The notes under the pieces: model-generated
What the model saw: only the letters and a program-made list of their open reading frames with translations
The model's database searches: none
What the model was told of the DNA's origin: nothing
Position numbers and translations under genes: made by a program
DNA from: an uncultured Alphaproteobacteria bacterium
GTDB taxonomy: Bacteria; Pseudomonadota; Alphaproteobacteria; Rs-D84
Assembly: GCA_949156565.1 (NCBI GenBank)
Contig: CASCZI010000001.1
Coordinates: 33,908-97,907 of the forward strand
Direction of reading: 5' to 3'
DNA length: 64,000 nt
In this document: positions 28,331 through 54,862 of the stretch, piece by piece
Layout of the letters: each line of letters begins with the position of its first letter
Numbering within the stretch: the first letter of the stretch is position 1

Positions 28331-28356
28331 AAAAACGGGCACATTGCCCGTTTTTT
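28331..28356. terminator. Bidirectional terminator
   Basis: AAAAACGGGCA-cat-TGCCCGTTTTTT. Confidence 0.8.
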
Positions 28357-29212
28357 ATTTTAATTCAAAGACGCACATCATATAGGGGGATGAATACAGG
28401 GGGGAATCCGGAATATTTGACACGTTGGTTTCGTTTTTATTGACGAACCAATTGCCGTCGGTTGGTGCGGTTGATATGGTCCACGACTGGTACGCGGCGT
28501 TGTTGGTATCGACGAAATGTTGAAACAGACTGTTTCCGTGAATGCTGTGGTAACCGACCGAATGGTCAAAGACGGCGATAAATGCACTGGCGTTACCGAC
28601 GCCGCCGGCAATTGAATCAATCGGGGTATCGCGTCCGTCGGAATAACTGTATTGTGTTGCGAATAAATAAGTTCCCGGCCCCAGTGTGCCGTTGGCGCAT
28701 GCCGCGCGCGCATCGTTCAGGGTTTCGGGGTTATGCCAGTCGGCAAAGACGCCACCGGGCGATTGTTCCCGGCAACACGACACCATGCGCCATTGGCTGA
28801 TATCTGTGGCGGGAATGTATTTTTTAACATCATCCAGGTTCATAAACGTATTAACAGGTGCGCCGGCCGGACGTGCGCCGTCCGCCGTTTCATTGGCGCC
28901 GGGGCATCCAATGGCGCCATAGGTGCATGCCGCGCGATGCATCCCGCCCGTACAATAATGTCCCAGACCACAGTCTGTGCACGCGGATAATCCATCCACA
29001 GAATACGTCCCCGGGGCGCAGTTCTGGGCCAGCCATTGGTTCCCAACATGTAATGCCCCGGCCGGGGCATTCCCGGCATTCAGGCTGCCATAGTACACCC
29101 CATCGGCCAACCCAATAGCCAGGGCGGGTATGGTCCGACGTACGGTATCCAAACGAATACTGGTATTTTCATAATGCAATGCCGCACCCAACCCGTCGTT
29201 TGGATTAGGCAT
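28355..29212 (-). CDS. Cys-rich protein with shared N-terminal module (locus A)
   Basis: Starts MPNP at the second repeat copy; CAPGTYS..C..CGLGHYCTGG repeats; no signal peptide seen. Confidence 0.7.
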   Translation of the reverse strand: MPNPNDGLGAALHYENTSIRLDTVRRTIPALAIGLADGVYYGSLNAGNAPAGALHVGNQWLAQNCAPGTYSVDGLSACTDCGLGHYCTGGMHRAACTYGAIGCPGANETADGARPAGAPVNTFMNLDDVKKYIPATDISQWRMVSCCREQSPGGVFADWHNPETLNDARAACANGTLGPGTYLFATQYSYSDGRDTPIDSIAGGVGNASAFIAVFDHSVGYHSIHGNSLFQHFVDTNNAAYQSWTISTAPTDGNWFVNKNETNVSNIPDSPLYSSPYMMCVFELK

Positions 29213-29351
29213 ATTTGGAAATGTGAAAAAGTGCGGATTTTTGCGTTTTTTATTTTGGGAATTTTGTCGATCCCAAACGACCGTTTGGATTAGGCATAGT
29301 GTCATAACCCCTAACCCCAGGAATTGTACCACGTTGCGGGGATTTGTGCAA
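29197..29351 (-). promoter_or_regulatory. Cassette leader A: promoter, 17-bp direct repeats, uORF
   Basis: TTGCAC(29346-51)-17-TACAAT(29323-28); CGTTTGGATTAGGCATA at 29197-29213 and 29282-29298; uORF MPNPNGRLGSTKFPK (29250-29297). Confidence 0.7.
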
Positions 29352-29401
29352 TGATAAAAATTGTCCTTTATTCATTGGTCCTGGGGGCGTATAATGGGAA
29401 C

Positions 29402-29881
29402 ATGACACGTATATTGGGAATTGATCCAGGGTTATTACATACCGGATGGGCTGTGATTGACAGCCAGGGCAACACGCGCAGGTATATTGCCAGTGGCGTG
29501 ATACTGCCGTCCGTGAAACAGGAAATGGCGGCACGTTTGGTTGACATCTTTCGCGGGGTGGACGCGGTGTGTGAAACATATTCGCCCGATGCACTTAGCA
29601 TTGAAATTATTTTCGTGAACCAAAATGCAAAAACGTCGCTGGCCCTGGGCCAGGCGCGGGCATCCGCCATCGTGGCGGCGGCCAACCGGGATATTCCGGT
29701 TTTTGAGTATGAACCGAACAAGATTAAAAAGGCCCTGACGGCCGCCGGTCATGCGGACAAAGATGCGGTAACCAAAATGGTACGCATGCTGTTGCCTGGG
29801 GCCAATCCCCATTCCCCGGACGAGGCGGATGCCATCGCCATCGCGTTGGCGCACAGCAATATGATGCGGTTAAATTATTAA
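29402..29881 (+). CDS. ruvC: Holliday junction resolvase RuvC
   Basis: ILGIDPG, LGQARA, EYEP..IKK, DEADAIAIA. Confidence 0.95.
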   Translation: MTRILGIDPGLLHTGWAVIDSQGNTRRYIASGVILPSVKQEMAARLVDIFRGVDAVCETYSPDALSIEIIFVNQNAKTSLALGQARASAIVAAANRDIPVFEYEPNKIKKALTAAGHADKDAVTKMVRMLLPGANPHSPDEADAIAIALAHSNMMRLNY

Positions 29882-29945
29882 TTCTTTTGAATTAAATTCC
29901 CACGCAATGGTTCCTATTAAAATGGGGATTGGGGGCTGTTATACT

Positions 29946-31844: not shown

Positions 31845-31914
31845 AATAAAAAATCCTTGTTGTTTTTATATTGGACAGGAATTATTATACATACACAAGT
31901 TAAGGATTGCAAAC

Positions 31915-38200: not shown

Positions 38201-38797
38201 ATGAAAAACATCTTGATTATTGGCAATTGTCGGGCGGGAAAAACATTGATGGCGCGGGCACTTATGCAACGGATGCCGCATATGGCCTTTATCGGGACCG
38301 ATCATATGCGGTCGGCGATTATGAAGACATTGTTGCACGACGTTACCGATTTTGAAAATGATCCCCAATGCGCGACCTTTGATGCCCAATGGGGGTCACG
38401 ATTAATTGAAATTAATAAACGTTTCTTCATATCCCATATACGCAGTTATAACCAAGACAATAAATTTTTTATAATGGAAGGTGGGGTTATTAAATTTGAT
38501 GATGCGGCGGAATTCATTAACGATCCCCGCATTCTGATCGTATGTGTCGGCAAACCACAATTGGATGCCGATGCCTATTACAACGACATCCGCGCATGGG
38601 ATCAAAAACATCATACATGGACCACCGAACACACGGATGTCGACGTCCGGGGTCTGGCCGAAAAATATGCACGCGAAAGCCGGTCTAATTTTGAAAAATG
38701 TCTCGCGGCGGGCGTGATCTTTGTCGATACCAGTTTTAATCAAATGGCCGTCATTGACGCGGCCGCCGACCAAATTTCAACCATCGCCACACAATAA
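38201..38797 (+). CDS. P-loop NTPase/kinase-like protein
   Basis: Walker A GNCRAGKT; FIMEG; AAGGAG RBS. Confidence 0.7.
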   Translation: MKNILIIGNCRAGKTLMARALMQRMPHMAFIGTDHMRSAIMKTLLHDVTDFENDPQCATFDAQWGSRLIEINKRFFISHIRSYNQDNKFFIMEGGVIKFDDAAEFINDPRILIVCVGKPQLDADAYYNDIRAWDQKHHTWTTEHTDVDVRGLAEKYARESRSNFEKCLAAGVIFVDTSFNQMAVIDAAADQISTIATQ

Positions 38798-38816
38798 ATA
38801 ATCGGGGAAATAATTT

Positions 38817-39725
38817 TTAATTCTGGTCTGGGGACGCAAAGCATGTCGCATCATAGTAAAATGTTCCCCGTTCGTCATGAACCAATGTCGTGTCGTTTTT
38901 CGGCATAAAGCATTTGTCTTTGGTCTTATTATCCCCCAATTTAGATGTGCCTTGGTGCGTGACATCATCCTTGTCTTTGAAATTGGGACATATTGTGCAT
39001 TTATCGCACCCACCCTGGGGATCCCCGTAATACCCCGCGATACACCGATATTCATATTCACTGGGCACCCATTCACATTTTTCACGATTGCATGTATAAT
39101 CTTTGATACGCCGTTCACATACAGATCCCGTCACGGCCGAAAATTTATCATCGGGCTTTTCTTGGCCGTTACAATTCTCGTCACATTGCAATGCACACGC
39201 GGTGTATTGAGACACCATGCTCCATGTGCATGCATGACTTGCTTGATTAAATATATTTCTGTTGCACCCAACGGGTATATCTGATACAGAATTTGGTACA
39301 GCTTTGGTGACTAATTTATAATTTTTATCCGCATCACATTCTGTGGCATAATCCAAAACCATATGTATCCGATACAAAGAACAAGAATTGCCCGAACCGC
39401 CACCCGGTTCTAATCCCGGCGGGTTCGAAGATGAACCTTCTTGCTTATAACTATAGACATATAACCGACTAATACTCTTGTTCCCATTTTTATCAACCTT
39501 GGCCCCGACGGTTTCATCAATCAGGCGAATATCATATTTTGATAATGTTGTATCACCCGGGTCTTTGTAACTTTGAGTCCATTCACAATAAAGACTTGGG
39601 TCATCACTGCCCGGCCGATATATTGGTGTATGCGCCATAACAGGCGCCGTCATCATTATGGCGATCAATTTTATGACATTTTTCATTTGTCCCCCCCCGA
39701 TAAAACCACCCTTTGGATTAGGCAT
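38817..39725 (-). CDS. Cys-rich secreted protein (locus B)
   Basis: MPNP start at 39725 or MKNV start at 39686 with signal-like peptide; YRCIAGYYG..C..CP; C-terminal HDERGTFYYDATC. Confidence 0.75.
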   Translation of the reverse strand: MPNPKGGFIGGGQMKNVIKLIAIMMTAPVMAHTPIYRPGSDDPSLYCEWTQSYKDPGDTTLSKYDIRLIDETVGAKVDKNGNKSISRLYVYSYKQEGSSSNPPGLEPGGGSGNSCSLYRIHMVLDYATECDADKNYKLVTKAVPNSVSDIPVGCNRNIFNQASHACTWSMVSQYTACALQCDENCNGQEKPDDKFSAVTGSVCERRIKDYTCNREKCEWVPSEYEYRCIAGYYGDPQGGCDKCTICPNFKDKDDVTHQGTSKLGDNKTKDKCFMPKNDTTLVHDERGTFYYDATCFASPDQN

Positions 39726-39865
39726 AGTTTTTATTTTATCAAACCCCGGATTTCTGGGATTTTTTTGTTGTCCCACTATGCCTAATCCAAAGGGTGGTTT
39801 AGATTAGGCATAGTCAAATAACACTTTTACCCAGGAATTATACCCGTTTGCATGGATTTTGGCAA
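39703..39865 (-). promoter_or_regulatory. Cassette leader B: promoter and three motif copies including a 26-bp inverted repeat
   Basis: TTGCCA(39860-65)-17-TATAAT(39837-42); IR 39703-39728/39775-39800; uORF MPNLNHPLD (39782-39811). Confidence 0.75.
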
Positions 39866-39927
39866 GTGACAAATCCCATCATTTATGATATAATTCCCCC
39901 AAGAAAATATGTATAAAAAGGCAACGC

Positions 39928-40830: not shown

Positions 40831-40843
40831 GGGGGATAACCGT

Positions 40844-41455: not shown

Positions 41456-41615
41456 AAATCTATTTTTATGTTATAATATTTATATCATCAAATACGCCAA
41501 GAATTTATATATGTGGATGCTGGCGGGCGTCGTGCACCATGGGCCGGGATCGCGGCAAAATCCCGTACCGACGCAACCTAATCATCATTGACCGCCCCAC
41601 GAACCAAATCTCTCA

Positions 41616-42575: not shown

Positions 42576-42727
42576 TTTCTTTTCCCTTGTTTTAAATCAT
42601 TTGATGCCGCATCAAGATTTTTTGTTTATAAACCAGGCCGACACCATCAACCACAACCCCATGCGATCCCGCAGATCATTTAAATAAAATTTTATGTTGC
42701 CAAATTTCATCAATGCGATTGTAAATT

Positions 42728-43072
42728 CTATTTGTTTTCCAGTCTGAACCTTAAGATATAATATCTATCGATTGTTTCGGGTGCAAATTTTGTTCTGTCG
42801 GCAATTACAGCCCCGGAATAATCAATTTGTATATCCCCAAATTGGTCAGCAGTTATATCAACGACTTTACCATTAATTTTATTAAAATAATGCGAGTCCT
42901 TGCCGATTTTTATTTTATAAATATCGCCCCCAAACATATCTTGAATAATCATGGTTGTGACGGCACATTGGCCATACGATGGGACTTTCCCTGTTGTGCC
43001 ATAATAAGATGTATCTATCCCCCAAACGGATTCGAATTTTTTTCGCAAAAAGTTCACATCTATTGATTTCAT
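42728..43072 (-). CDS. YunG-like protein
   Basis: W..DTS, GQCAVT.MIIQD.FGG, HYFN, DITADQF. Confidence 0.8.
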   Translation of the reverse strand: MKSIDVNFLRKKFESVWGIDTSYYGTTGKVPSYGQCAVTTMIIQDMFGGDIYKIKIGKDSHYFNKINGKVVDITADQFGDIQIDYSGAVIADRTKFAPETIDRYYILRFRLENK

Positions 43073-43224
43073 TTAACTTTATGATTACAGATTCTCACTT
43101 GATTTGTCCACTTGTTTTCCGGCACCCAACCAATAAAATAATTCATCCAATGGTGAATTTATTCCACTTCTTTCCACAATCCGCCCCGCGCGACAGTTAT
43201 CCCAGTGACACGTTTTCATATATG

Positions 43225-43902
43225 TTATTGTTTCAAATACAGCATTTTTCCCGAAACTTTATCATACATTCCCGTCACACCGTCTTGATCTTTGGCCGGC
43301 ATCAGATCCATAATAATCCCATTACTGTCCCAGAATTTGGCATAATAAATATCCCCCAAAAATCGACGTGAATCAATACGCCCCTGATCTGCCAATGCCC
43401 CCAAGATCAAGTTAATCCCCATCTTATTATCAACATTTGTAAAATATGAAATATCCTGGGGTTGATCATTGATGGTAAAAATATTATTTTCCCATCGTAT
43501 TGTAATTTCCCCATCTGGGACAGATAAATCATTTCCACTAACCACAAACAGGCGTGGCGCCATCGCGTTTTTTTCAGATTCATCCAAATCTGCGCGAATT
43601 TCAAAATTCAAATCTGTTGTCGGGACAAAGCCTAAATCCATATAAGATGCCCCATCAAATCGCACAGATTCTATGCTGTCTTTAAATTCCGGCACAGTGT
43701 ACGTTATTGCGTTTAATCTTATCTTTACCCGCGCATTCGTGCCCGTCCCCAACGCGGAACAATATTTTTTACCATCCACACCGATGCATAACGCCGGTCG
43801 CACAACACTGTCTGAATCATGCATACAGCCAGATTTTATTGCCCATCGCAAATTATACGCTATGGTTGCAGGGCACTCGTTAGGACTTAAACTTCGCAAC
43901 AC
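43225..43902 (-). CDS. Shared module plus LamG/concanavalin-A-like domain, possibly 5'-truncated
   Basis: RPALCIGVDGKKYC module; FDGASYMDLGF...FLGDIYYAKFW..DLMPA..GMYDKVSG; TTG start doubtful. Confidence 0.55.
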   Translation of the reverse strand: MLRSLSPNECPATIAYNLRWAIKSGCMHDSDSVVRPALCIGVDGKKYCSALGTGTNARVKIRLNAITYTVPEFKDSIESVRFDGASYMDLGFVPTTDLNFEIRADLDESEKNAMAPRLFVVSGNDLSVPDGEITIRWENNIFTINDQPQDISYFTNVDNKMGINLILGALADQGRIDSRRFLGDIYYAKFWDSNGIIMDLMPAKDQDGVTGMYDKVSGKMLYLKQ

Positions 43903-43990
43903 TCGTTTTCGCTTACTCGTAGTCGAACCCGTCGTTTGCTTCGCAAACTTTTTCGCCGGTTCTCATCTCCGCACGTCCAGACCAAAACAA

Positions 43991-44013
43991 AAACCGACCA
44001 TCTGGTCGGTTTA
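43991..44013 (-). terminator. Terminator downstream of tRNA-Tyr
   Basis: AAACCGACCA-tc-TGGTCGGTTT with a T-rich tail on the minus strand. Confidence 0.75.
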
Positions 44014-44018
44014 TGTTT

Positions 44019-44105
44019 TGGTGGGAGTGGCTGGATTCGAACCAGCTCAGGCTTAAGCCAACAGATTTACAGTCTGCCCCGGCTCTCCAACTCCGGCGCA
44101 CGCCC
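44019..44105 (-). tRNA. tRNA-Tyr(GTA)
   Basis: Anticodon arm GCAGA-CTGTAAA-TCTGT, long variable arm, GGTTCGAATCC, encoded CCA. Confidence 0.95.
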
Positions 44106-44199
44106 GATCTCGTATAATCCACTTTATGCCCGCCTTTGTCCCATGGGACGACGGCACGACACTGAATTTCCAGACCGCGCTTCACTTGGTGGAAATTCG

Positions 44200-44274
44200 T
44201 GGTGCGGGCAGCGGGAATCGAACCCGCATTTCAAGCTTGGAAGGCTTGCATACTAGCCTTTGTACTATGCCCGC
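44200..44274 (-). tRNA. tRNA-Gly(TCC)
   Basis: GCGGGCA/TGCCCGC acceptor stem, CAAGC-CTTCCAA-GCTTG, GGTTCGATTCC, encoded CCA. Confidence 0.95.
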
Positions 44275-44424
44275 AACAAATCTAAAGCGTTCTGATTATA
44301 TATTATTTTTTGTTAAACGCAAGCTTTTATTCATTCCCCGTACAAAAATAAAAAATGCCAATTTATTATTGACAATAATTTCCGTTCTGTCTATTATAGT
44401 CATCCCATAAAAGGAGTAGCATAG

Positions 44425-45027
44425 ATGGATATTAATATAGCTGTTGAACAACATACATACAATTATGACATATATGATCAGCCCAGAAACATTTCTGTAA
44501 AATTACGCCATGGACCACGCACACGTATCATGACCCAGAAAAAAATAATACCGACCACATCACATGCGCCCCAAACATCGTCTGTAAAATCTGCTTTGAC
44601 GCAGCAAATGGATGGTGCATCGAATGGAACATGCCCCAAATATAAGCCCGCAACATTCCGTCCCCGTATGGCCAAGGTGGCATTGGCAAAATATTTTGAC
44701 AATGACGATCATGCCCCGGCGGGCCAATTCTGGTTGGACGATATTGCGGCCCAATATGCTGCGATGGCACCAAAATCCCAACCGATGATCAAAGATGATG
44801 CGGATTATGGAATAAAGTACCTCAGAAATTTAATCGACAGATATGCCGCAGAATTGGCAAAGGGGTATGAAGTCATTCAACAAATGCAAAATATAGAAGA
44901 CATCCGCACAGCGCGCTTTTTGGAAAAAAGACGCCAAAAATGGATGAATGAAATGACCAGAGCCTTTATCAAAGAGCAAAATGAACGCAACGCCCGGTTT
45001 GCGGAAAAAATTTGCAAATCAAAATAA
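44425..45027 (+). CDS. Hypothetical protein
   Basis: TTGACA-17-TATTAT promoter (44369-44397), AAGGAG RBS, terminator at ~45042-45076. Confidence 0.7.
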   Translation: MDINIAVEQHTYNYDIYDQPRNISVKLRHGPRTRIMTQKKIIPTTSHAPQTSSVKSALTQQMDGASNGTCPKYKPATFRPRMAKVALAKYFDNDDHAPAGQFWLDDIAAQYAAMAPKSQPMIKDDADYGIKYLRNLIDRYAAELAKGYEVIQQMQNIEDIRTARFLEKRRQKWMNEMTRAFIKEQNERNARFAEKICKSK

Positions 45028-45088
45028 CACCATACGCATGCATCCGCGGTTGCCCCCGGCGATCGCGGATTTTTTTACCCGCCTTATT

Positions 45089-45286
45089 TTACTTCAAGGT
45101 ATAGATCACCCCAGAGATGTTGATTTTAATTCCTGGGATAGCATTGTTGTATAAATTTCCATAGCAGATTCTGCCCGGCACACGCACCACAAGTCATGGT
45201 GACGTGTATTTAACCGGCAATAGCAGCGCGGTAACATTTCAGGCACGAACCAATAGCGCACTAAAAACGCAACTTTTTTCAGGCAT
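45089..45286 (-). pseudogene. Relic gene of the cassette family with two in-frame TGA codons (locus C)
   Basis: MPEKSCVFSALLVRA*NVTALLLPVKYTSP*LVVRVPGRICYGNLYNNAIPGIKINISGVIYTLK* aligns with the C-terminal module of 53965-54723. Confidence 0.7.
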
Positions 45287-45342
45287 AGCATTTTTACACT
45301 CTAGCCCAGGAATTATACCCATTTGCACGATTTTTTTTACAA
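45281..45342 (-). promoter_or_regulatory. Cassette leader C: promoter and single motif copy
   Basis: TTGTAA(45337-42)-19-TATAAT(45312-17)-TCCTGGG; CTATGCCT with ATG at 45286. Confidence 0.65.
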
Positions 45343-45396
45343 GGGAAAAATTGGGAATGGGTGCCCCAATCATGGTCCACGTCCGGGATCCCAAAA

Positions 45397-45515
45397 AAAG
45401 ACCACCCCGGGCTTCGCCCACCCCTCCACCGGAGGGGAACTTATATTCAGGCAGGTTTGGTCCAAGTTCTCCTCCCTCGAGGGAGTACCCCAAAGGGGGG
45501 GGGGAGATGGTCTTT
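45397..45515. repeat. REP/REPIN-like palindromic element
   Basis: AAAGACCACCCC...CCCCTCCACCGGAGGGGAACTT...AAGTTCTCCTCCCTCGAGGGAG...TGGTCTTT; homologous to 54928-55304. Confidence 0.7.
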
Positions 45516-45729
45516 AATCAGAACTCTGAAAACAGAATTGTCGTGGATGGGTTCTGGCGGGGAACTTAGACCCGAACTTAACCTCCCCTACTCTGCACTC
45601 TGAACACTAAGATCTGAAATTGGTGGTGTCCGGGTTCATAAAAATTCCGTACACCGTTTGTATTTTTTTGCGTCTTTGGTTTCCCGCGATATAGCCAAAT
45701 GCCCATATCGCGGGATTTGTTATCATAGA

Positions 45730-46425
45730 TTATTCGTTAATAATCTTTTCCATTTTTAAGATAAAGTCGATCGCCGGTTCGGTTATTTTTTGCACCTTGT
45801 TTAGGACATCTTGGGCGGCGGCCTTCATCTCTAAACGTTTATAGGTTTCAACAACCTCTTGTGTTTCATCGGCGTCGAAATGATCGTCATTTATCGCACG
45901 GGCGATTGCCAGTTCCCGTGCCGCCATATCGGCATATTTTTTTGAATTTTCTGGGCATCCCCGTTCGGATAACACAGCGTACGTTTTCGCGCGCACAATA
46001 CGTTCATCGGCATTGCTGCTTTCTGGATACAACCCTTGCAAAAGCATTTCTTCAATGATGGCACATGTCGTCATATCGGATGCGTTGGATGTATCTGATG
46101 TCGTATTGTCATGATGGGGTTTGTTGGGTTGGGATGCATATCGGGCACAATTTTGTGCAAACAAATCGTTATAGGATTGAAATACATCTGGATCAACATC
46201 ACGCGCATTAAGGGCCATGTTGCTGATCTGATTCTGCAAATTTCGGCAATCATCACGGGTCATCGCGGCAACATCGCCGGCATTCATCCCGTTTCCTTTG
46301 AACGTCATGCCGATCATCATGCCACAGATAAATAATCCCACAACCGCGATTAATCCCCAAATTTTTTGACGCCGCGAACAGCAACCCTGAATTGATATTG
46401 CTTTTGTTGAGGTTTGATTTTTCAT
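45730..46425 (-). CDS. Hypothetical membrane-anchored protein
   Basis: GAGG RBS; N-terminal TM; paired Cys. Confidence 0.7.
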   Translation of the reverse strand: MKNQTSTKAISIQGCCSRRQKIWGLIAVVGLFICGMMIGMTFKGNGMNAGDVAAMTRDDCRNLQNQISNMALNARDVDPDVFQSYNDLFAQNCARYASQPNKPHHDNTTSDTSNASDMTTCAIIEEMLLQGLYPESSNADERIVRAKTYAVLSERGCPENSKKYADMAARELAIARAINDDHFDADETQEVVETYKRLEMKAAAQDVLNKVQKITEPAIDFILKMEKIINE

Positions 46426-46453
46426 GTTAGTTTTCCTCCCTCTTGGTTTAAAA

Positions 46454-47164
46454 TTATTTTACAATTCCGTTATCAATCGTAATTGTTCGATCGGCACGCC
46501 CGGCCAATGTCATATCATGCGTCACGAACAGCATGGCCATCTTGGATTGACGCGTCAAATTCATCAGAATATCAAATACCGCCGATGCATGGGCGGGATC
46601 CAAACTGCCCGTGGGTTCGTCCGCCAATAAAATTTCCGGATTATTTGCCAGGGCCCGCGCCACGGCGGTCCGTTGTTGTTCCCCACCCGACATTTCGGCG
46701 GGAAAATGGGTGGCCCGATGTCCCACATCCGCGGCCCGCAATAATTTCAACGCCCGTGCACATGCCACGTCTTGATCAACGCCGGCGGCCAACATGGGCA
46801 ACATTACGTTTTCTGCGGCGGTAAAATCCGATAATAAATTATGCCGTTGATAAACAAATCCCATTTTATGGCGACGAATTTTGGTGCGGGCCGCTTCGTC
46901 CATTTTTTGAACCGGAACGCCATCGATTAAAATGCTGCCACTGGTGGGTTTATCCAACAATCCCACGCATTGCAATAATGTGGATTTCCCACTGCCGGAT
47001 TGCCCGACCAAGGCAACGATTTCCCCCCGATGCAGATCGAATCCCCCACCGCGCAAGATGTGCAATGGCTGGCCCCCTTCGACAAAGGTTTTTTTAATAT
47101 CGCGCACAGACATCACCACATCACCACGCCGCACCTGGGATAAAGAATTTAATATCGTTGTCAT
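46454..47164 (-). CDS. lolD: Lipoprotein-releasing ABC ATPase LolD
   Basis: GQSGSGKST, GFVYQ.H.LL.DFTA.ENV, MSGGEQQR, ADEPTG; operon with lolE. Confidence 0.9.
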   Translation of the reverse strand: MTTILNSLSQVRRGDVVMSVRDIKKTFVEGGQPLHILRGGGFDLHRGEIVALVGQSGSGKSTLLQCVGLLDKPTSGSILIDGVPVQKMDEAARTKIRRHKMGFVYQRHNLLSDFTAAENVMLPMLAAGVDQDVACARALKLLRAADVGHRATHFPAEMSGGEQQRTAVARALANNPEILLADEPTGSLDPAHASAVFDILMNLTRQSKMAMLFVTHDMTLAGRADRTITIDNGIVK

Positions 47165-47907
47165 TTTTCATCATCCTTTGTCTTGTTCATTGCGTCACGT
47201 GCCGATAACACCGCCCCCACAATTTTTTCGGCCCGATCGGGACGAATCATATATCCCGGATAAAAACCCATTGGATCAAAAATATGGGCATCCCGATTGC
47301 GTTGATCCATTGGTGTGTTCAAGAAATAATCAATATCTTCGGGGGCAAAACCATAATTTACGCCCATCAAGAAATCCAAGATCAAAAGATCATTGGTCAT
47401 ATCAACCCGAACACATTTCAATAATGGATTTAAATCCTTTAACCGGGTCACGTTATCACACGCAATGTCATGGGCATTTTTTTTCTGGACATCAATCCAA
47501 TCGGCCAACGCAACGCGCCCATCATCATCCAAATGCCCCAAGATTTGTTCTGTATCTTGGATTTCGCGATCGCACCAGGATGTAATTTGTTTGACCAACG
47601 CGTCATCTAAATCATTTATCGCGTTATCCATGCCCAAGTGGGTTATATCTTTATAATAATTTTTCGTATCTGTTATTTGACGTCGATATTCCACCCCGAG
47701 GATATAGCACAACCGTTGGACCTGATATTCAAAATCGCGTGGCGAGAGATTTTCGGGAAATCTATAATTATAAAACAATTGAAACGGCGGATTAACATAT
47801 TGACGTATTTTTTCATCAAACATCTGGGCAGATGAATCAAATGGAACATAAAGCATCGTGGACCGACGTACCAATTTATCCAAAAGAATCGCATTCTTGT
47901 CATTCAT
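47161..47907 (-). CDS. Hypothetical protein between lolE and lolD
   Basis: 248-aa ORF abutting both neighbours. Confidence 0.7.
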   Translation of the reverse strand: MNDKNAILLDKLVRRSTMLYVPFDSSAQMFDEKIRQYVNPPFQLFYNYRFPENLSPRDFEYQVQRLCYILGVEYRRQITDTKNYYKDITHLGMDNAINDLDDALVKQITSWCDREIQDTEQILGHLDDDGRVALADWIDVQKKNAHDIACDNVTRLKDLNPLLKCVRVDMTNDLLILDFLMGVNYGFAPEDIDYFLNTPMDQRNRDAHIFDPMGFYPGYMIRPDRAEKIVGAVLSARDAMNKTKDDEK

Positions 47908-47910
47908 TGG

Positions 47911-49170
47911 TTATTCATTCCGTAAAACATCCACCGGATCGGTCGCGGCCGCACGCCATGCCGGATACAATGTTGCCATAAATGCCAGCGCAATCGCAAT
48001 CAACGCAATCCCCAACACATCCGACCAAATCAATTTTGATGGCAATTCTGATAAATAATAAAGTTCGGCCGGAAACAAATCGCGTCCGGTTATCCATTGG
48101 AAAAATTGCCGGATGGGTTCGATATAAATCGCCACCACAACCCCAAGCAATGTTCCAATCCCCGCACCAATGACCCCAATACTGGTCCCGGTTAAAATAA
48201 AGATTCGCATCATTGACCGCCGCGATACCCCAAATGTGCGTAAGACGGCAATGTCTTTAGATTTATCTTTGACCAACATCACCAAGGAAGACACAATATT
48301 AAACGCCGCCACAATCACAATCAGCATTAAAATCAAAAACATGACATTACTTTCAACCTGTAACGCACCAACAAATCCGCGATTTAAATCACGCCAATCA
48401 CGCACCACAAATCCATCCGGCAAGAGGTGGGATAAACTCTCTGCGACGGCATGCGTGTTTTCTGGATCTTTTAAAAAGATATCAATATGCGTCACCGCAT
48501 CGTTAAGGTTTAGGTATTTTTGCGCGGTTTCCAGTGGCATAAAAATATATCCGGCATCATATTCATACATCCCCATAAAAAACGATGCCATAACGGGGTA
48601 TGCCATAATCCGGGGCATTGTTCCAAACGGTGTGGCGGTGCCCCCATTGGCCGATATCAATGATACCCGATCCCCCATCGTCACCCGTAAATTGCGCGTC
48701 AAAGAATTTCCCGCCACCAATTCGCCATCTTTGATCGTATCCAATTTCTTGCCATAGATACGCGTTCCATTTGCCGTTTTTGCGGCCAAATCCGCCATGC
48801 GAATGCCACGCACCATGGCCCCGGCATTATGACCATTTGCCGTCACCATCACTTGACCTTCGGCAATGGGAACAATTGATGTGGCCGCCGCTGCAACCAC
48901 GCGATTTTGACGCATTTTATCAATCAAGAAATCATAATCGGTGATGGCACCATCTTGGTGATAAACAACAACATGCCCGTTCATCCCAACAATCCGATTC
49001 AAGAGCGTGTCATGAAATCCCCCCATCACCGACATCACCACAATCAGTGTCGCGACACCCAACATAATCCCAATCAGCGACACCCACGAAATCACAGAAC
49101 CAAAGCCCCGCTTTTTCGCGCCCAGATACCGAAAGGCCACCTTTCTTTCCAGTCTTGAAAACAGCATCAT
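47911..49170 (-). CDS. lolE: Lipoprotein-releasing ABC permease LolC/E
   Basis: LGVATLIVVMSVMGGF, VAAFNIVSSLVMLVKDK, TLYPAWRAA..DPV..LR. Confidence 0.92.
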   Translation of the reverse strand: MMLFSRLERKVAFRYLGAKKRGFGSVISWVSLIGIMLGVATLIVVMSVMGGFHDTLLNRIVGMNGHVVVYHQDGAITDYDFLIDKMRQNRVVAAAATSIVPIAEGQVMVTANGHNAGAMVRGIRMADLAAKTANGTRIYGKKLDTIKDGELVAGNSLTRNLRVTMGDRVSLISANGGTATPFGTMPRIMAYPVMASFFMGMYEYDAGYIFMPLETAQKYLNLNDAVTHIDIFLKDPENTHAVAESLSHLLPDGFVVRDWRDLNRGFVGALQVESNVMFLILMLIVIVAAFNIVSSLVMLVKDKSKDIAVLRTFGVSRRSMMRIFILTGTSIGVIGAGIGTLLGVVVAIYIEPIRQFFQWITGRDLFPAELYYLSELPSKLIWSDVLGIALIAIALAFMATLYPAWRAAATDPVDVLRNE

Positions 49171-49180
49171 TATTTTTCCT

Positions 49181-50512
49181 TTATTCACTTAGGAATGCGC
49201 GCAATGCATCCCCCGCCAACGGCGTCGCATTTTGGTCCGCATCCACGATTGAAATAACACGGGGCGACATAAATACCACCAATTCGGCAAATGGCGAAAT
49301 CAATGTTTCCGGTGTCGTCACAAACGAATGTGTCGGAATACCAATAATCACGTAATTATCCCCCACATTCGATGGAATATCAAATGACGATAATTCCCCA
49401 CCCGATGTCCGCAGGACAATTTTCGCATCAATCTTTTTTTTGCCGCCATAATCACCATATTTCGCCGTGGCACCGATAATTAAATCTGTTTCTAAACGTT
49501 CTTCTTTGGTGCATTGACCAATATCAAACCGTGATTGCCATCCATTGGGGATCACAAATGTTCCCTGTGAAATCAAAACAACATTGGCCTGTTGATATAA
49601 AAATTCTTGTAACGTTTTGGTATTGATTTCCGGACTGACGACCAAGGCACGCCCCACAACGCCCGGAATCGACATCTTGATATTCTTTTCCCCAAATGCC
49701 GGCAACATATTCATCCACACGATGGGATTATCTGTGCGCGGATAAACACGATAAACATCAATATCCCACGCCAACATGTATTTTTTAGATGACACATCTG
49801 CGATTAAACGCGCCACTTCGCGTTCGGTTTGATAATTTCCTTCGAATGTGACGGTTTTGTCGGACCAATCCACCAACAAATTACGCAAATCCGCCCCACG
49901 CATCGCATCCAACAGGGCCATTATAATACTCTCGTCGCGGGGCATTTTAATTAACCATTTGGCCCGATTATCCAAATGCAATTCATTCGCCGACGCATCA
50001 TAGGAATAATAAACCCGCGCCATTTTGGTCATTAAATCCACCGCATCGGTTAATGTCCCAGATTGAATGCCGCCAGTGATTTTTTCAACCTGGGTCTGAT
50101 CTTCGATCACGGCAATATCGGTCCCATCTAATAATTTTTCCAATGCCTGCTTTGCCGTTAATCGCGAAAAATCATAATCCGATACCGCCAATTCGGGTAA
50201 TGGATCCCCCGCCCCCAGGCGAACAATTTCAATCTTTTCTTCGGGGACAACCGATACAACCGATTGATTATTCCAATCAACCCGACACCGTTTGGGCAAA
50301 TCAATGGAAAACCGCCGCGCCGTGTCGGTGGTTAATGCCGCCTTTTTCGGAAAGATCGGCACCGAATTTTCATCAATGACCAGATTTTCCACCACCGTAA
50401 CCGTGTCATAATCATTTTTCTGTTTTTCCGCACGCAATGCGGCACATCCCAAAATGGGCACAACCATCATCCATGTAACAATTTTTCCAAATGCGTTTTT
50501 AAATCCTGTCAT
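49181..50512 (-). CDS. Secretin-like lipoprotein (PilN/BfpB-like)
   Basis: Possible lipobox ILGC; FLYQQANVVLISQGTFVIPNGWQSRFDIG and ELVVFMSPRVI resemble secretin signatures. Confidence 0.55.
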   Translation of the reverse strand: MTGFKNAFGKIVTWMMVVPILGCAALRAEKQKNDYDTVTVVENLVIDENSVPIFPKKAALTTDTARRFSIDLPKRCRVDWNNQSVVSVVPEEKIEIVRLGAGDPLPELAVSDYDFSRLTAKQALEKLLDGTDIAVIEDQTQVEKITGGIQSGTLTDAVDLMTKMARVYYSYDASANELHLDNRAKWLIKMPRDESIIMALLDAMRGADLRNLLVDWSDKTVTFEGNYQTEREVARLIADVSSKKYMLAWDIDVYRVYPRTDNPIVWMNMLPAFGEKNIKMSIPGVVGRALVVSPEINTKTLQEFLYQQANVVLISQGTFVIPNGWQSRFDIGQCTKEERLETDLIIGATAKYGDYGGKKKIDAKIVLRTSGGELSSFDIPSNVGDNYVIIGIPTHSFVTTPETLISPFAELVVFMSPRVISIVDADQNATPLAGDALRAFLSE

Positions 50513-50539
50513 TTTCCCGCCCCTTGGCACACGTGTGCG

Positions 50540-50863
50540 TTAGATATTCATTACTTTTTCAAATTCGGCCAATGTCATTTCATAAATCGGCTTTTGCGTG
50601 GGTGTTGCCAAATCCCGGACCGCATCAAATCCCGCATCAATGCGTTTCATAATGGACGCCGTCGATGCATCAATGGCCACGCCTGATTCCCGCAACCGAC
50701 GTCCATATTCGGCCAAATATTCCAAGATATCGGCGGCATAAAATCGGCCGACATAATTTTCGATGGCGATTCCACCTTTTTGTACACAAATGGCCGCCAT
50801 CACCGTCATGGTTTGGTTATAATAATTAACCATCTTGATATAATTTTGAACCGATATTGCCAT
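50540..50863 (-). CDS. Hypothetical protein
   Basis: AAGGA RBS; 107 aa. Confidence 0.65.
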   Translation of the reverse strand: MAISVQNYIKMVNYYNQTMTVMAAICVQKGGIAIENYVGRFYAADILEYLAEYGRRLRESGVAIDASTASIMKRIDAGFDAVRDLATPTQKPIYEMTLAEFEKVMNI

Positions 50864-50938
50864 TGATCCTTTCCCCGCTTTGCACCCCTATTATAAAAAC
50901 TATTGCCCCCCAAAGGCAATTAAATTATAATGCATAAC

Positions 50939-51319
50939 ATGAGAATAAAATTCATCGCACTTGTTTTGCTCTTATCGGCCTGTTCATCCCCCAATCGCGG
51001 CAGTTTGGATAACGCCACCATTTTGAATTGGGAAAACGAAGCCGTCACGATCGAACAATTTGTTCGTGATCACAAGGCATGTTTGGGAATCACCCAACCA
51101 TCCTATATGCCCCGATCCCGTATTGCAAAATTACTGGCCCCGAATCAAAGTGGCCTGATGCCTGATTGGGATGGATTATGGGTCACATTCCAATCCAATG
51201 AATACCGCGATGTTGGGCAAAGATCCTTGCTCTCGGTGCCACGCAATGCCACATCCCGGACGGTCGGTGCCTATCGCCGGTGCATGTTCCGGCGCGGCTA
51301 TCTCTTGCGGGCGATGTAA
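50939..51319 (+). CDS. Lipoprotein
   Basis: Lipobox LSAC; D..AC and Y..CM..RGY pattern. Confidence 0.7.
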   Translation: MRIKFIALVLLLSACSSPNRGSLDNATILNWENEAVTIEQFVRDHKACLGITQPSYMPRSRIAKLLAPNQSGLMPDWDGLWVTFQSNEYRDVGQRSLLSVPRNATSRTVGAYRRCMFRRGYLLRAM

Positions 51320-51370
51320 TTTTTTCATCACCGGCTTTATTCCCCCTGCTTTTTGTGATATAATGGGGAT

Positions 51371-52057
51371 ATGAAGAAATCAATCTGGTTTTGGCTGTGC
51401 TTTATAACTGCGATCATCCTGGGGGTGTATTTCGCCACACGCATTATTATGATTACATCGGGTCGGGGGCGATTGGCCACCATCCGTCATATATCCATCA
51501 CGACCGATCAACCGAATCAGGATATGGCCCCATTGGCCGCGGCACTGGGGGTGCCCCCCGGATCCCGATCATACGCCACGCGATTGACGGCGGTGAATGA
51601 CCGTATTGGCGCGGTGCCCGGCGTTCGAACATCGGCGGTACGACGCTTGGCCAATGGCAATCTGGGGGTGCACGTCCAAATACATGAAACAATCGCCTTG
51701 TGGACGGATGACGGGGAAATATTTTTCCCACTATCGGCGGACGGCACCATTATCCAAACCCCGCGGCGGACACGCACGCCGGGTGCCATTGTGTTCCGGG
51801 GACCGGTACCCAATGATATTGGGGACATCGCCCGGGTGGCGGGACATTTGGGCAAGGATCTGGATTATATGGAATGGATTGAAAACCGACGCTTTAACAT
51901 CCATACCACCGGGGGGGTGACCATCCTCTTGCCCCAGGTAAATCCAGACGCCGCCATCGGGTCATTGATGGTATTGAACAAGAAAAATGGGATTTTATCA
52001 AAAAAAATACGCATCATTGACATGCGTGACGCGGCGCGCATTTTAATCAAAGAATAG
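51371..52057 (+). CDS. ftsQ: Cell division protein FtsQ
   Basis: N-terminal TM, POTRA-like V..SAVRR, C-terminal IDMR; precedes ftsA. Confidence 0.8.
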   Translation: MKKSIWFWLCFITAIILGVYFATRIIMITSGRGRLATIRHISITTDQPNQDMAPLAAALGVPPGSRSYATRLTAVNDRIGAVPGVRTSAVRRLANGNLGVHVQIHETIALWTDDGEIFFPLSADGTIIQTPRRTRTPGAIVFRGPVPNDIGDIARVAGHLGKDLDYMEWIENRRFNIHTTGGVTILLPQVNPDAAIGSLMVLNKKNGILSKKIRIIDMRDAARILIKE

Positions 52058-52071
52058 CAAGGCCGAATCAA

Positions 52072-53847
52072 ATGGCGATAAATTTATATAATTCATGCTT
52101 TTTATGCCTGGACATTGGGACCGCCGTTGTTCGTGGTATGGCCCATCGGGTGCGTGGGGCACGTATTGTTAAATCTGCGGTGGCGATGGCCGATTGTGAT
52201 AACGATGACCCCGCACGGGCCGTTGCGACAGTTGTTGATGATCTGGAACATCAATTGGGGGCCCGCCTGAATGGGGCCTTTGTGACAGGTAATATGGGCG
52301 ATATGGTATTTGATGTGGCGGCCACACGGGCCACATGGCGCACGCCCCATAAAATCAGTGTCGGTGACATGCGTGCCCAAATTGCCCAAATTTCATTACC
52401 AGATGGATTTCATCCTATGCACATCATTCCATTGCGTTATGATGCACCGGCGGCACGCAATTTACCAACCCCCATTGGGCATACCGATATGGGGTTAATT
52501 GGTCTGTTTGGGGTCATGGCATATCGCGATGACGTTATATCCCGTTTTTTAGGAATCCTGCGGCGTGCCCATCTTCAGGTGGCGGGTCTGTTTGATCCGA
52601 TGTATCTGTTGGGGGCAACCCGTGGGCGCAATACGGTTATGTATATTGATATGGGCGCACAGTATACGTCGGCATCAATCTGGACACAACGAGGGCCGGT
52701 ATGGATGATTAAAATTCCCCGGGGGACACACGAAATAACACAATCGATTGCCGATACGTTTGACATTTCTCTGACTGATGCCGCACGCATCTTTGCCGGG
52801 ATCGGCGCCGTCATGACAGAAATGGATCGATTTACACCGGCCGACCCATTGTTCGATTTTTCCCGCGCCGATGCGTGCGATGTCACATGCCCGTTGTTAA
52901 ATGAGATTATTGATACATTATCCGCGGCCGCCCAACCGGCCACAGAAAAATATAAACCCACCCAAATCTTTATCACCGGCGGGGGGGCTGTTTTGGGATC
53001 TATGGCGGAATTTATCACCCAGAAAATGGGCATCGCCGCCCAAATATTGGGTGCCGATGCGGTATTGCGGGCATTGTCTGATACCATTTGGGCGATCCAG
53101 GCACCACGCATCGCCGCCTTTAATCGCCGCCGGGATGGGCATCAACGCCTTTGGCGGCGATTAACGACACCATTTCGCCGCCGCCGCGTCACCCCACGTC
53201 CCATCCCCATTTTACCCAGTACGTTGGCATTCAACATGCGCGATGATACGACATACACCCTGTTTCGGGCGGCGGGAATATCTATGATTCATGTCGATAT
53301 TATGGATGGATTTTTTGTGGGCCGTGTCGCGGGTGGCATTGATGAATTAAAATATATCCGCGCCCATACAACCGCCCATTTATCGGTACATTTAATGACG
53401 GAAAGTCCCTTGTACTGGGCATCAGATGCGATCGCGGCCGGCGCCGACACCATTATTGTATCGGCGGGCACGGCCGGGTTACGATCGGCCGTGGCCGAGA
53501 TTAAGCGGCGCGGCAAACGCGTGGGCGTGGCCATTTCACCCGATTCACCATTGGGTATATTACGTGACATATTGCGCGAAATCGATGTTGTGTTGGTTAT
53601 GTCGGTACGTCCCGGTGCCGGCGGCCAAGAATTTATTCCAACCGCGGTACGGCGGATCGCCGCATTGGTGCAAACACGTCGTAAATATGGATTACATTTT
53701 GAAATATCGGTCGATGGCGGCATTAATGATAAAACAGCCCCATTATGTTGGGCGGCCGGCGCCGATACCCTGGTTGCGGGATCATATTTGGCCCGTGCAT
53801 CGGATTTTCCGTTGGCGGTACGCCATCTGATGCCGCGTGGGGAATGA
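52072..53847 (+). CDS. FtsA-like domain fused to ribulose-phosphate 3-epimerase
   Basis: FtsA: LDIGT, IDMGA, ITGGGA. Rpe: HVDIMDG, VHLM, VMSVRPGAGGQ, VDGGIN, GAD.LVAGS. One continuous ORF. Confidence 0.85.
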   Translation: MAINLYNSCFLCLDIGTAVVRGMAHRVRGARIVKSAVAMADCDNDDPARAVATVVDDLEHQLGARLNGAFVTGNMGDMVFDVAATRATWRTPHKISVGDMRAQIAQISLPDGFHPMHIIPLRYDAPAARNLPTPIGHTDMGLIGLFGVMAYRDDVISRFLGILRRAHLQVAGLFDPMYLLGATRGRNTVMYIDMGAQYTSASIWTQRGPVWMIKIPRGTHEITQSIADTFDISLTDAARIFAGIGAVMTEMDRFTPADPLFDFSRADACDVTCPLLNEIIDTLSAAAQPATEKYKPTQIFITGGGAVLGSMAEFITQKMGIAAQILGADAVLRALSDTIWAIQAPRIAAFNRRRDGHQRLWRRLTTPFRRRRVTPRPIPILPSTLAFNMRDDTTYTLFRAAGISMIHVDIMDGFFVGRVAGGIDELKYIRAHTTAHLSVHLMTESPLYWASDAIAAGADTIIVSAGTAGLRSAVAEIKRRGKRVGVAISPDSPLGILRDILREIDVVLVMSVRPGAGGQEFIPTAVRRIAALVQTRRKYGLHFEISVDGGINDKTAPLCWAAGADTLVAGSYLARASDFPLAVRHLMPRGE

Positions 53848-53848
53848 T

Positions 53849-53874
53849 AAAACCCCGGGGAAAGCCGGGGTTTT
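53849..53874. terminator. Bidirectional terminator
   Basis: AAAACCCCGG-ggaaag-CCGGGGTTTT. Confidence 0.75.
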
Positions 53875-53964
53875 CGTGGGGTCATATGAATACCCATTTC
53901 ACTGTTGTATCCACAATGAACTATGACGCCAAAAACCGCCCTTGGCAACAGGCGTCTATTCCCA

Positions 53965-54723
53965 TTATGGCACCAGATGGTATACCGTGTCCGACATGCG
54001 GATATTAATGGCACCGGTCGCGGTCCCCGGCGCCATATTGCCGTAACAAACCCGATCCCCAACGCGTACATGCACGGCCGGACTTGTCGTCCGCACCGCC
54101 CACAGGGGGACCACCGCATCCCCTGCACGCAGGCTGGTTATCCCGGCACCACAAACCCCGATACATTCATCCACCGACGCGGCCGTGGTGGTGCGCGTCG
54201 ATGTCCCGGCCGGACAAGATCCGCGCCGGATATCATCGGCCCCGGAATAATATCCGTAACCCACCGGAAAACACTTTGGATTGTTTACCATCGCCGCATG
54301 CGACCAATCCCAATAGTTGCCGTTTTCATTGCAATTGACACACCACGTGCCGGCGGGGCAATCATACACCGATATCATACAGTGGGTGGCGCTATTTGTT
54401 TCGATATACCCAGCCCCATCATACCCACAAGAAAAAATAAACGTTCCATAATTCCAATGGGCACGGCAACCCGCAACAGATCGATGGATACCATCCTCTG
54501 ACCAATAACTATATCCTGTCAAATGTTGGGCATCATAATCAGTCGACGGACAATAATGAATGGTATCATCCCCCGGACAGTAAAAGCCCCCCTCGTCCCA
54601 ATTACAGACCGTACACACCCCGTTGTTCAGATAATAGCCGGGATCGCATGTTGCGGCACGCACCGACGTGGTGATCAGAATAGCCACCATCAGCGCGCAA
54701 AACCCGACGGTTTTTTTAGGCAT
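53965..54723 (-). CDS. Cys-rich secreted protein with shared C-terminal module (locus D)
   Basis: Signal peptide MPKKTVGFCALMVAILITTSVRA; CDPGYY, GFYCPG, CPAGT repeats; ends TSPAVHVRVGDRVCYGNM...INIRMSDTVYHL. Confidence 0.8.
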   Translation of the reverse strand: MPKKTVGFCALMVAILITTSVRAATCDPGYYLNNGVCTVCNWDEGGFYCPGDDTIHYCPSTDYDAQHLTGYSYWSEDGIHRSVAGCRAHWNYGTFIFSCGYDGAGYIETNSATHCMISVYDCPAGTWCVNCNENGNYWDWSHAAMVNNPKCFPVGYGYYSGADDIRRGSCPAGTSTRTTTAASVDECIGVCGAGITSLRAGDAVVPLWAVRTTSPAVHVRVGDRVCYGNMAPGTATGAINIRMSDTVYHLVP

Positions 54724-54862
54724 AGTTGGGGGGAAAATTTGTCGCAGAAATCTGGGATTTTTTGTTTGTCTGAGACCGCTCAAAAAAACGTCCCTTTGGA
54801 TTAGGCATAGTCAAATCACGCCCAACCCCAGGAATTATACCCATTTGCACGATTTTTTACAA
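54716..54862 (-). promoter_or_regulatory. Cassette leader D: promoter, direct repeats, uORF
   Basis: TTGTAA(54857-62)-17-TATAAT(54834-39); ACTATGCCTAA at 54801-54811 and 54716-54726; 30-aa uORF 54716-54808. Confidence 0.75.

Follow-up and report, generated by a model that had tools for sequence, protein, structure and literature searches.

Duplicated start motifs before cysteine-rich protein genes in an uncultured alphaproteobacterium are probably paired sites of small inversion switches

Why should the start of a gene be preceded, some 85 base pairs (bp) upstream, by a second copy of its own start motif? The question is raised by a 64,000-nucleotide (nt) stretch of DNA, hereafter the window, from an uncultured alphaproteobacterium (contig CASCZI010000001.1, positions 33,908 to 97,907). 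Four minus-strand loci of the window, named A to D, carry a common promoter followed by a motif with an ATG, and at A, B and D the motif occurs twice. A first-pass annotation of these letters described the layout in front of cysteine (Cys)-rich proteins and proposed an ON/OFF or shuffling system for surface proteins, working possibly by excision or insertion of a unit of about 85 bp, or by control through a short upstream open reading frame (ORF) or RNA structure. The general idea of ON/OFF control from a dispersed cassette fits the observations reported here, but the mechanism is most likely inversion, and not excision or an upstream ORF. The cassettes are probably a new variant of invertase-driven phase variation, in which inversion switches are placed before genes for secreted or surface proteins.

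The source genome of the window, G000, is 1.07 Mb long in 10 contigs and 95.8% complete, and three other cassette-bearing genomes, G041, G042 and G043, were compared with it. In the window the promoter 15-mer GGTAYAATTCCTGGG has four matches, all on the minus strand (29316-29330, 39830-39844, 45305-45319 and 54827-54841). Shuffled windows gave a mean of 0.36 matches and none of 100 shuffles reached four, which confirms the promoter shared by the four loci. The start motif CTATGCCTAATCCAAA, with up to three mismatches allowed, has six matches in the window against 0.78 expected. Reading the sequence likewise bore out the ATG 25 nt past the -10 box at 29297, 39811, 45286 and 54808, the second-motif ATG at 29212, 39725 and 54723 (spacings of 85, 86 and 85 bp) and the single motif copy of locus C. 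The short first ORFs at A, B and D are as described, with 15, 9 and 30 codons, and the second ATGs indeed have no Shine-Dalgarno sequence, a C-rich stretch preceding them instead. Throughout G000 the same order is met: a near-consensus promoter, then 25 nt on the motif CTATGCCTAATC, and a second motif copy 85-86 bp downstream. With up to one mismatch the 15-mer matches 19 times in G000 and its reversed control not once, and a stricter promoter-plus-motif pattern gives 25 cassettes.

The first-pass annotation had also suggested that the genome and its relatives be scanned for the motif. Besides the 25 cassettes of G000, such a scan gave 19-68 motif copies in each of five other genomes, with 0-1 in the control. 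A search of public genomes for the exact 19-mer at the first motif gave 74 stretches, almost all of them from a handful of uncultured gut or termite-gut alphaproteobacterial metagenome-assembled genomes; three were chance matches in unrelated bacteria. Every real case has a TTGnnn-17-TATAAT promoter, the motif about 25 nt further on and a second copy 85-88 bp later. More diverged cassettes with the same layout are present in further species of the same large genus, a set from which one match, L132, was removed as a false positive, being a terminator. A BLAST search of the genus with the locus D cassette matched 35 of 120 genomes, a tally not usable as the range of the cassette because many of the weak matches cover only a 23-nt core that resembles ordinary terminator hairpins.

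What the two motif copies are was judged from their surroundings, each cassette being laid out as a 12-nt motif, six inner positions, two central positions and an inner arm. The left centre (positions 19-20) is the reverse complement of the right centre in 72 of the 74 two-site cassettes (20/20 in G000, 16/18 in G041, 15/15 in G042 and 21/21 in G043), and in the two exceptions the right motif is two bases shorter. The central dinucleotide differs among loci, being GA, GT, AC or AA. Cores such as CAAAGG-GA-CGTTTG fit the Gin-type inner pattern AAASS-NN-SSTTT, which is the inner gix pattern in the excerpted text of PMC5175349, where the native gix core has a GA centre. The D-type sites of G000 depart from this pattern in that one arm is a base longer. 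Direct repetition of the two motif copies is confined to their outer 12-18 nt, and their centres are inverted. With the centres in inverted orientation, inversion of an 83-84 bp segment is predicted and not excision of an 85-bp unit, so that the excision or insertion considered earlier fits less well. What was taken for a duplicated start motif more plausibly represents the outer half-sites of a pair of putative invertase sites that face each other, and the spacing of 85-86 bp is the centre-to-centre distance. In all cassettes read, the promoter-like site stands upstream of the left site and outside the segment.

If the segment were turned, what would it bring to the gene? Read on its antisense strand, the 83-84 bp segment shows a Shine-Dalgarno sequence (GGAGG or a G-run) followed at a distance of 5-8 nt by an ATG, GTG or TTG, which begins a run of about 12-18 open codons. 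Segments were inverted in silico exactly at the centres, and a Shine-Dalgarno-preceded start reading without a stop into the gene frame was scored. The gene frame was defined as the sole frame with 80 or more open codons, and 13 further copies were dropped because their frame was unclear within 400 nt. After inversion an in-frame start of this kind was present in 42 of 45 standard-orientation copies, compared with 4 of 45 as found; the gained starts number 16/16 in G043, 12/12 in G042, 6/8 in G041 and 8/9 in G000. The other two frames, used as a control, gave a Shine-Dalgarno-preceded start in 23 of 114 cases. Cassettes from eight further species behaved alike, all eight that were parsed having an ATG with a Shine-Dalgarno sequence in frame after the flip, and one of them having no start codon at all in the standard state (8 of 10 cassettes were evaluated; one parse failed and one fell under the thresholds). 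Shine-Dalgarno sequences are indeed in use in this organism, as they precede 178 of 537 long ORFs but only 22 of 537 control positions, and the anti-Shine-Dalgarno tail of the 16S rRNA is canonical.

The hidden frame also carries the signature of coding sequence. Among 24 distinct, presumably OFF copies from G042 and G043, single-base codon differences in the predicted frame are 275 synonymous to 492 non-synonymous, compared with 129:973 and 140:1025 in the other two frames of the same copies. The hidden start codon in these copies is ATG or GTG only, most replacements exchange I, L, V and F for one another, and the frame differs in length between species by whole codons. With the segment in standard orientation, the frame stops inside the first motif. 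As it lies antisense to the only visible promoter and ends there, there would be no reason for its upkeep unless it were sometimes turned round.

The segment is found in both orientations among paralogues and among species. In G000 the copies at C1:170614, C5:21839 and C6:84651 differ in orientation from the rest, and both orientations also occur in G041 and G043; the natural flipped copies are eight altogether, three in G000, four in G041 and one in G043. They have a Shine-Dalgarno sequence and a start 51-56 nt past the first motif, and their ORFs run from 132 to more than 520 amino acids. In the flipped copy of G043 two motif arms make the left site perfectly palindromic, and both weak arms are together in the right site, exactly as exchange at the centre predicts. 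The tandem paralogues C6:83059 and C6:84651 of G000 have near-identical gene starts and opposite segment orientations. The N-termini encoded by the two orientations differ as well. In G043 (n=18) and G042 (n=5) the standard N-terminus has 0.0 K/R in residues 2-6 and a peak hydropathy of about 1.0, and the flipped N-terminus has 1.7-1.8 K/R and a peak hydropathy of 2.1-2.3, a contrast indicating that in these two genomes the segment supplies the first half of a signal peptide. At locus A the product as found starts without a hydrophobic stretch, and the in-silico flip adds one in frame.

Locus B belongs to a second type, in which three motif arms are present, the gene has a Shine-Dalgarno sequence and ATG of its own further downstream, and the segment has a GC-rich hairpin followed by a T-run. 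The hairpin at locus B runs antisense to the gene, for which reason this copy is interpreted as ON by read-through, and a flip would place the terminator between promoter and gene. In G041 the hairpin is in sense orientation on contig C17 and antisense on C40, with the same promoter behind and the same gene start ahead. By count, terminator-type cassettes are two antisense and three sense in G000, and two antisense and two sense in G041. In G042, at C14:14050-15000 and C30:12250-12606 (L144 and L145), the right site and not the left is palindromic, and the Shine-Dalgarno sequence and ATG of the gene come after it.

Which enzyme would turn the segment? G000 has three tyrosine and three serine recombinase genes, the serine recombinases being 500, 532 and 210 amino acids in size. 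The 210-residue protein (C9:26256-26888, with Resolvase and HTH domains) is the only small serine recombinase of the genome. It scores 303.1 bits on the NCBIfam equivalog NF009949, 'master DNA invertase Mpi family', against a cut-off of 272 (E = 8.8e-91, residues 1-196), and its best solved relatives are Gin DNA-invertase chains. Orthologues with 74-88% identity are present in all five of the other cassette-bearing genomes, with a mean column identity of 86%. Judged from sequence, this Mpi-family enzyme presumably acts on the cassette sites. Genus-wide, many genomes have one to five more small serine recombinases about 50% identical to the Mpi-like one, several of which read with an internal TAA. 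Recombinase presence was also set against cassette presence across the genus, a comparison too confounded by relatedness to count.

The proposed mechanism would then be as follows. A fixed, strong promoter of the sigma-70 type would stand upstream, and the inversion switch would lie between it and a secreted, Cys-rich or other surface-related gene. One small serine recombinase of the Mpi family would make its cuts at the central dinucleotides and invert the segment of 83-84 bp. In the main type, represented by loci A and D, the flipped segment would face the gene in frame with a Shine-Dalgarno sequence, a start and about 12-18 codons, which would be the ON state, and in several species these codons would encode a charged and hydrophobic sequence that forms the first half of a signal peptide. 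With the segment in its usual orientation, the gene would be left with only the motif's own start, preceded by the C-rich, anti-Shine-Dalgarno-like stretch, or in some species would lack a usable start altogether, a state that would be OFF or weak. In the second type (B) the hairpin and T-run in the segment would terminate transcription in one orientation only. That a given locus flips today, and which state is ON, are predictions of this scheme. The states of the window are most likely standard for A and D, read-through for B and a remnant for C.

Several observations weigh against this interpretation. The control frames of the in-silico test are imperfect, as in G043 they too give a Shine-Dalgarno-preceded start in 15 of 36 cases. 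Most D-type genes of G000 already encode, from the ATG of the motif itself, a full N-terminus resembling a signal peptide; the standard state may therefore be weakly ON there and not OFF, and the switch may only tune the strength of translation. This completeness of the standard-state N-termini is the weakest point of the ON/OFF assignment for the genome of the window. Both orientations were seen among paralogues and species only, not at one locus in one population. Among the joints listed for the assembled contigs of runs X1-X4 on window positions 38500-55500, no strand-changing joint was found; these contigs stop at cassettes (39722/39785, 45320-45460 and from 54723 onwards). The joints and loose ends there are explained by paralogous cassettes and the repeats upstream of them, and give no verdict on inversion. 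The left and right inner arms match beyond what a 2-bp crossover needs, a feature left unexplained. The link between recombinase and cassettes is confounded by relatedness, paralogues of about 50% identity being common in the genus. The profile of the Fis-type domain HTH_8 (PF02954) has no match in G000, at the completeness given above, and an enhancer was not searched for; with no Fis-type protein, an enhancer mechanism in the manner of Hin and Gin is not supported and the system is not filed under the Fis-dependent Hin/Gin group. Finally, the counts given as fractions overstate the support, because the copies are paralogues and relatives and not independent.

A first rival explanation is that the inversions are evolutionary relics, made possible now and then in the past by short inverted repeats, the orientation at each locus being fixed by now and the cassette being a shared strong promoter and 5' region that gene conversion keeps alike. 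It would account for orientations that differ between paralogues and species and never at one locus, for contigs that showed no heterogeneity and for the many standard-state genes of G000 that look complete alone. An unused antisense start region should decay, however, and yet the Shine-Dalgarno sequence, the ATG or GTG, the open frame, the whole-codon length changes and the synonymous excess persist in at least 12 species. The centres are likewise still matched in all but two of the two-site cassettes, and the Mpi-family invertase is kept, at the identities quoted, in genomes of about 1 Mb. We regard relics as unlikely. Control at the RNA level, which would need no DNA rearrangement, is a good deal less probable still. 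Here the first ATG would open a leader peptide, and pairing of the leader with the region around the second motif would mask or unmask the main start, by attenuation or translational coupling. The short ORFs from the first motif at A, B and D speak for it, the stop of the one at locus D overlapping the second motif, as does the stretch past the first motif, which is complementary to the gene start and co-varies with it among loci. Nevertheless, CTG stands in place of the first ATG in 3 of 10 cassettes that belong to other species of the genus, the folding of the D and A leaders does not surpass that of shuffled sequences (z = -0.08 and -0.82), and there is no match to an Rfam family; the suggestion of upstream-ORF or RNA-structure control is weakened by these results. 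It also leaves unexplained why an antisense start region should be in frame and coding-like, and why copies with a reversed segment exist.

Two further accounts were weighed. The palindromic unit could be a small mobile or recombinogenic repeat, similar to a miniature inverted-repeat transposable element (MITE) or a Correia element, which brings a promoter and whose orientations reflect independent insertions. Many dispersed copies, the 10 of 20 G000 contig ends that lie in cassettes and the other hairpin-rich dispersed repeats just upstream would suit such an element. Its spacing would not be expected to be as constant as it is (25 nt from promoter to motif, 85-88 bp from site to site), every copy of the unit sits at the 5' end of a gene, with which it is in frame after inversion, its position relative to gene starts is conserved across species, and neither a linked transposase nor target duplications were seen, so that we consider this very improbable. 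Slighter yet is the chance that the antisense frame is a gene of its own, encoding a hydrophobic peptide of about 20 residues in the manner of a type I toxin, with the sense leader as antisense RNA. The frame in the standard orientation does end in the first motif and would give a short hydrophobic peptide with a Shine-Dalgarno sequence. But no promoter-like site for it was found in the one region scanned on both strands (locus B, of the terminator type; other loci were not scanned), and the matched recombination sites, the continuity of frame and the long ORFs of natural flipped copies would have no explanation. Inversion switches are thus the reading followed below.

At locus A, the promoter (29323..29351, minus strand) has the -35 box TTGCAC at 29346-29351, a 17-nt spacer and the -10 box TACAAT at 29323-29328, and lies outside the invertible segment. 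The predicted left recombination site (29268..29299, minus) consists of CTATGCCTAATC, inner CAAACG, centre GT (29280-29281) and an inner arm beginning CGTTTG, and the right site (29183..29214, minus) of ATATGCCTAATC, inner CAAACG, centre AC (29195-29196) and an arm beginning GGGTTG. Between them the putative invertible segment of 83 bp (29197..29279, minus) is in the standard, presumably OFF orientation. Its plus strand carries a hidden GTG start at 29231-29233, the hydrophobic frame of which is in frame with the coding sequence after the in-silico flip. The gene (28355..29212, minus) encodes 285 amino acids from the ATG at 29212, with 3.5% Cys and no signal-peptide-like N-terminal stretch as found.

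Locus D has its promoter at 54834..54862 on the minus strand (TTGTAA at 54857-54862, 17 nt, TATAAT at 54834-54839). The left site (54779..54810, minus) has the motif, inner CAAAGG, centre GA (54791-54792) and an arm beginning CGTTTTTTT; the right site (54694..54725, minus) has the motif variant CTATGCCTAAAA, inner AAACCG, centre TC (54706-54707) and an arm beginning GGGTTTT. The predicted 83-bp segment (54708..54790, minus) is in standard orientation, with the conserved core AAAAATCCCAGATTTCTGC at about 54744-54762, and on the plus strand carries a hidden Shine-Dalgarno-like run of six G (54728-54733) and a TTG start (54739-54741). Flipping it in silico at the centres gains a Shine-Dalgarno-preceded in-frame start. 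The gene (53965..54723, minus) encodes a 252-residue protein with 6.7% Cys, a signal-peptide-like N-terminus and repeated motifs of the C-x-P-G-Y-Y type. Other dispersed repeats with short GC hairpins lie just upstream of cassette promoters, at 54900-55330 and 45390-45540. They give dozens of BLAST matches over all contigs, the contig depth being about ten-fold, and one of them has a terminator-like hairpin at its end, right before the -35 box of locus D.

At locus B the promoter (39837..39865, minus; TTGCCA, 17 nt, TATAAT) agrees with the consensus at 11 of 12 positions. The predicted left site (39782..39813, minus) is palindromic, with two motif arms and the centre AC at 39794-39795; a third, inverted motif copy on the plus strand (39776-39791) forms its second arm. 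The putative invertible segment of the terminator type measures 84 bp (39710..39793, minus) and contains the hairpin CCCGGATTTCTGGG with its T-run at 39745-39758 on the plus strand, antisense to the gene. The right site (39696..39727, minus) is made up of the motif, inner CAAAGG, centre GT (39708-39709) and an arm beginning GGTTTT. The gene (38817..39725, minus) encodes 302 amino acids from the motif ATG, with 5.6% Cys, and its signal-peptide-like stretch starts from an internal ATG at 39686. Between the right site and this probable true start (ATG 39684-39686) there is a run of eight G on the minus strand (39691-39698), which could add slipped-strand variation or act as a Shine-Dalgarno sequence. 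Back-to-back with the promoter of locus B, a plus-strand promoter-like site at 39866-39894 (GTGACA, 17 nt, TATAAT with TG) faces an ORF at 39928-40830.

Locus C (45277..45342, minus) consists of a promoter with its -10 box at 45312-45317 and a spacer of 19 nt, not 17, together with one motif-like site with the ATG at 45286; a long ORF was sought downstream of it and not found. It is read as a decayed or locked one-site remnant. The idea that the one-copy layout is a derivative holds to the extent that locus C and C3:122166 of G000 look locked or decayed, but it is not a regular alternative state of the cassette. For the 228 bases at 45320-45548, directly upstream of the -10 box of locus C, one contig in runs X2 and X3 has about 54 other bases, and this replacement is a strain difference at the remnant locus. 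Two tRNA genes lie on the minus strand at 44022-44105 and 44203-44274, about 1 kb downstream of the locus C promoter.

Most cassettes precede genes for proteins of about 250-300 amino acids with a signal-peptide-like start and several per cent Cys. The claim of Cys-rich downstream proteins held for the window, with 3.5-6.7% Cys, but these proteins are not one family, and one cassette, at C6:43592 of G000, precedes a protein that starts like a family-2 glycosyltransferase. From this cassette it follows that the switches may also control a surface-sugar enzyme and not only secreted Cys-rich proteins. The three cassette proteins of the window (A, B and D) had no match to a Pfam or NCBIfam family. 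An Ephrin_rec_like lead for a cargo protein scored 0.78, under the level that counts, and was not used. The locus D protein has only two relatives in a large protein collection, and a metagenome scan with it returned no relative. The one match of a metagenome 21-mer scan was a chance occurrence inside an unrelated coding region. In Rfam, at gathering level, only the two tRNAs matched, and no leader RNA family.

The cassettes also leave their mark on the assemblies. The contig ends of G000 that lie inside cassettes are the end of C1, the end of C2, the start of C4 and both ends of C5, C9 and C10, and the cassette family is one of the main causes of breaks in the assembly. Contigs C17 (at its end) and C40 (at its start) of G041 share an overlap of exactly 127 bases, which falls at a cassette.

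What would such a system mean for its carriers? On balance we are inclined to believe that a whole uncultured gut alphaproteobacterial genus with genomes of about 1 Mb varies its surface combinatorially through one Mpi-type master invertase working on 20-30 loci per genome. Its modules would act downstream of transcription initiation and control translation start and export, a gene being translated and exported only if its module faces it, and a sister module would turn a terminator by means of the same sites. If so, this would be an inverton family working at the level of translation and secretion, among the densest phase-variation systems per genome known, with about 2-3% of genes under such switches. 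Beside the flipping of promoters and of terminators it would add a third logic of invertase switches, in which the translation start and the N-terminus of the signal peptide flip and transcription stays constant. It would also extend the known range of working Mpi-type master invertases beyond Bacteroidota, to uncultured gut Alphaproteobacteria with reduced genomes. Gene callers would then mis-annotate the starts of these genes in the OFF state, and metagenome assemblies would break at these loci. With a format of 85 bp, defined sites and an enzyme of 210 amino acids, the cassette would be an attractive compact natural switch.

The first-pass annotation did not recognise the layout as a described system. 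Its kind is known, namely Mpi-like invertase-driven phase variation, but this particular layout was not found in the literature searched. Neither was a description of an inverton that carries a ribosome-binding site and the start of a signal peptide, or of a switch in this lineage, in a search that did not extend to supplements or most subscription journals. So-called partial intergenic invertons, with one repeat inside a gene and one outside, are widespread according to the excerpted text of PMC10028968. They differ from the present cassettes in being treated there mainly as longer, shufflon-like systems, and in the main text of that paper the terms 'start codon', 'signal peptide' and 'ribosome binding' have no occurrences.

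Surface proteins of Mollicutes are a second point of comparison. At UU172/MBA of Ureaplasma, site-specific inversion at short inverted repeats in or near the 5' part of surface-protein genes selects the protein made, as the excerpted account has it (PMC3047005). Inversion at short inverted repeats by the 5' parts of surface genes would be common to both, so far as that excerpt describes the system. The Mollicute systems move one expression site among alternative genes, whereas here each gene has its own promoter and what would be a private switch.

At cwpV of Clostridioides difficile, in the excerpted description (PMC2784873), a promoter stands upstream of an invertible region which itself lacks both a promoter and an ORF, and in the OFF state the transcript folds into an intrinsic terminator. 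Measured against that description, the B-type cassettes have the same logic and the A- and D-type do not, as their segment includes the start of the ORF. The main type here (A and D) would act on the translation start and signal peptide and not on termination. The recombinase of cwpV is a tyrosine recombinase. Further, cwpV is a single locus of 195 bp, whereas here the segment measures 84 bp, and the cassettes occur at several loci per genome and have sites resembling those of serine invertases.

With the Hin, Gin and Cin group the cassettes share a small serine recombinase that is nearest to Gin chains, and cores that fit AAASS-NN-SSTTT, most with the GA centre of native gix as given in the excerpt of PMC5175349. 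They differ in the lack of a PF02954 match noted above and of an identified enhancer, for which no search was made. Hin flips a promoter and Gin the ends of tail-fibre genes, each at one locus, whereas here many loci would flip a start region.

There remains Mpi of Bacteroides fragilis, which controls 7-13 loci by flipping capsule promoters, and the deletion of which locks them, according to the excerpted preprint (bioRxiv 10.1101/2022.10.31.514637). In the present system the promoter is fixed outside the segment, and what would flip is a ribosome-binding site with the start codon and early coding sequence, or a terminator. Each segment spans no more than 83-84 bp, about 20-30 loci share a genome of about 1 Mb, the host belongs to an uncultured lineage of Alphaproteobacteria, and the pairing of enzyme and sites is one that we infer. 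The likeness lies in the plan, which in that excerpt comprises one conserved small serine recombinase and many dispersed invertible regions before surface-structure genes in a gut symbiont, and which here is matched by many dispersed target regions, the 25 cassettes of G000, with a common site consensus.

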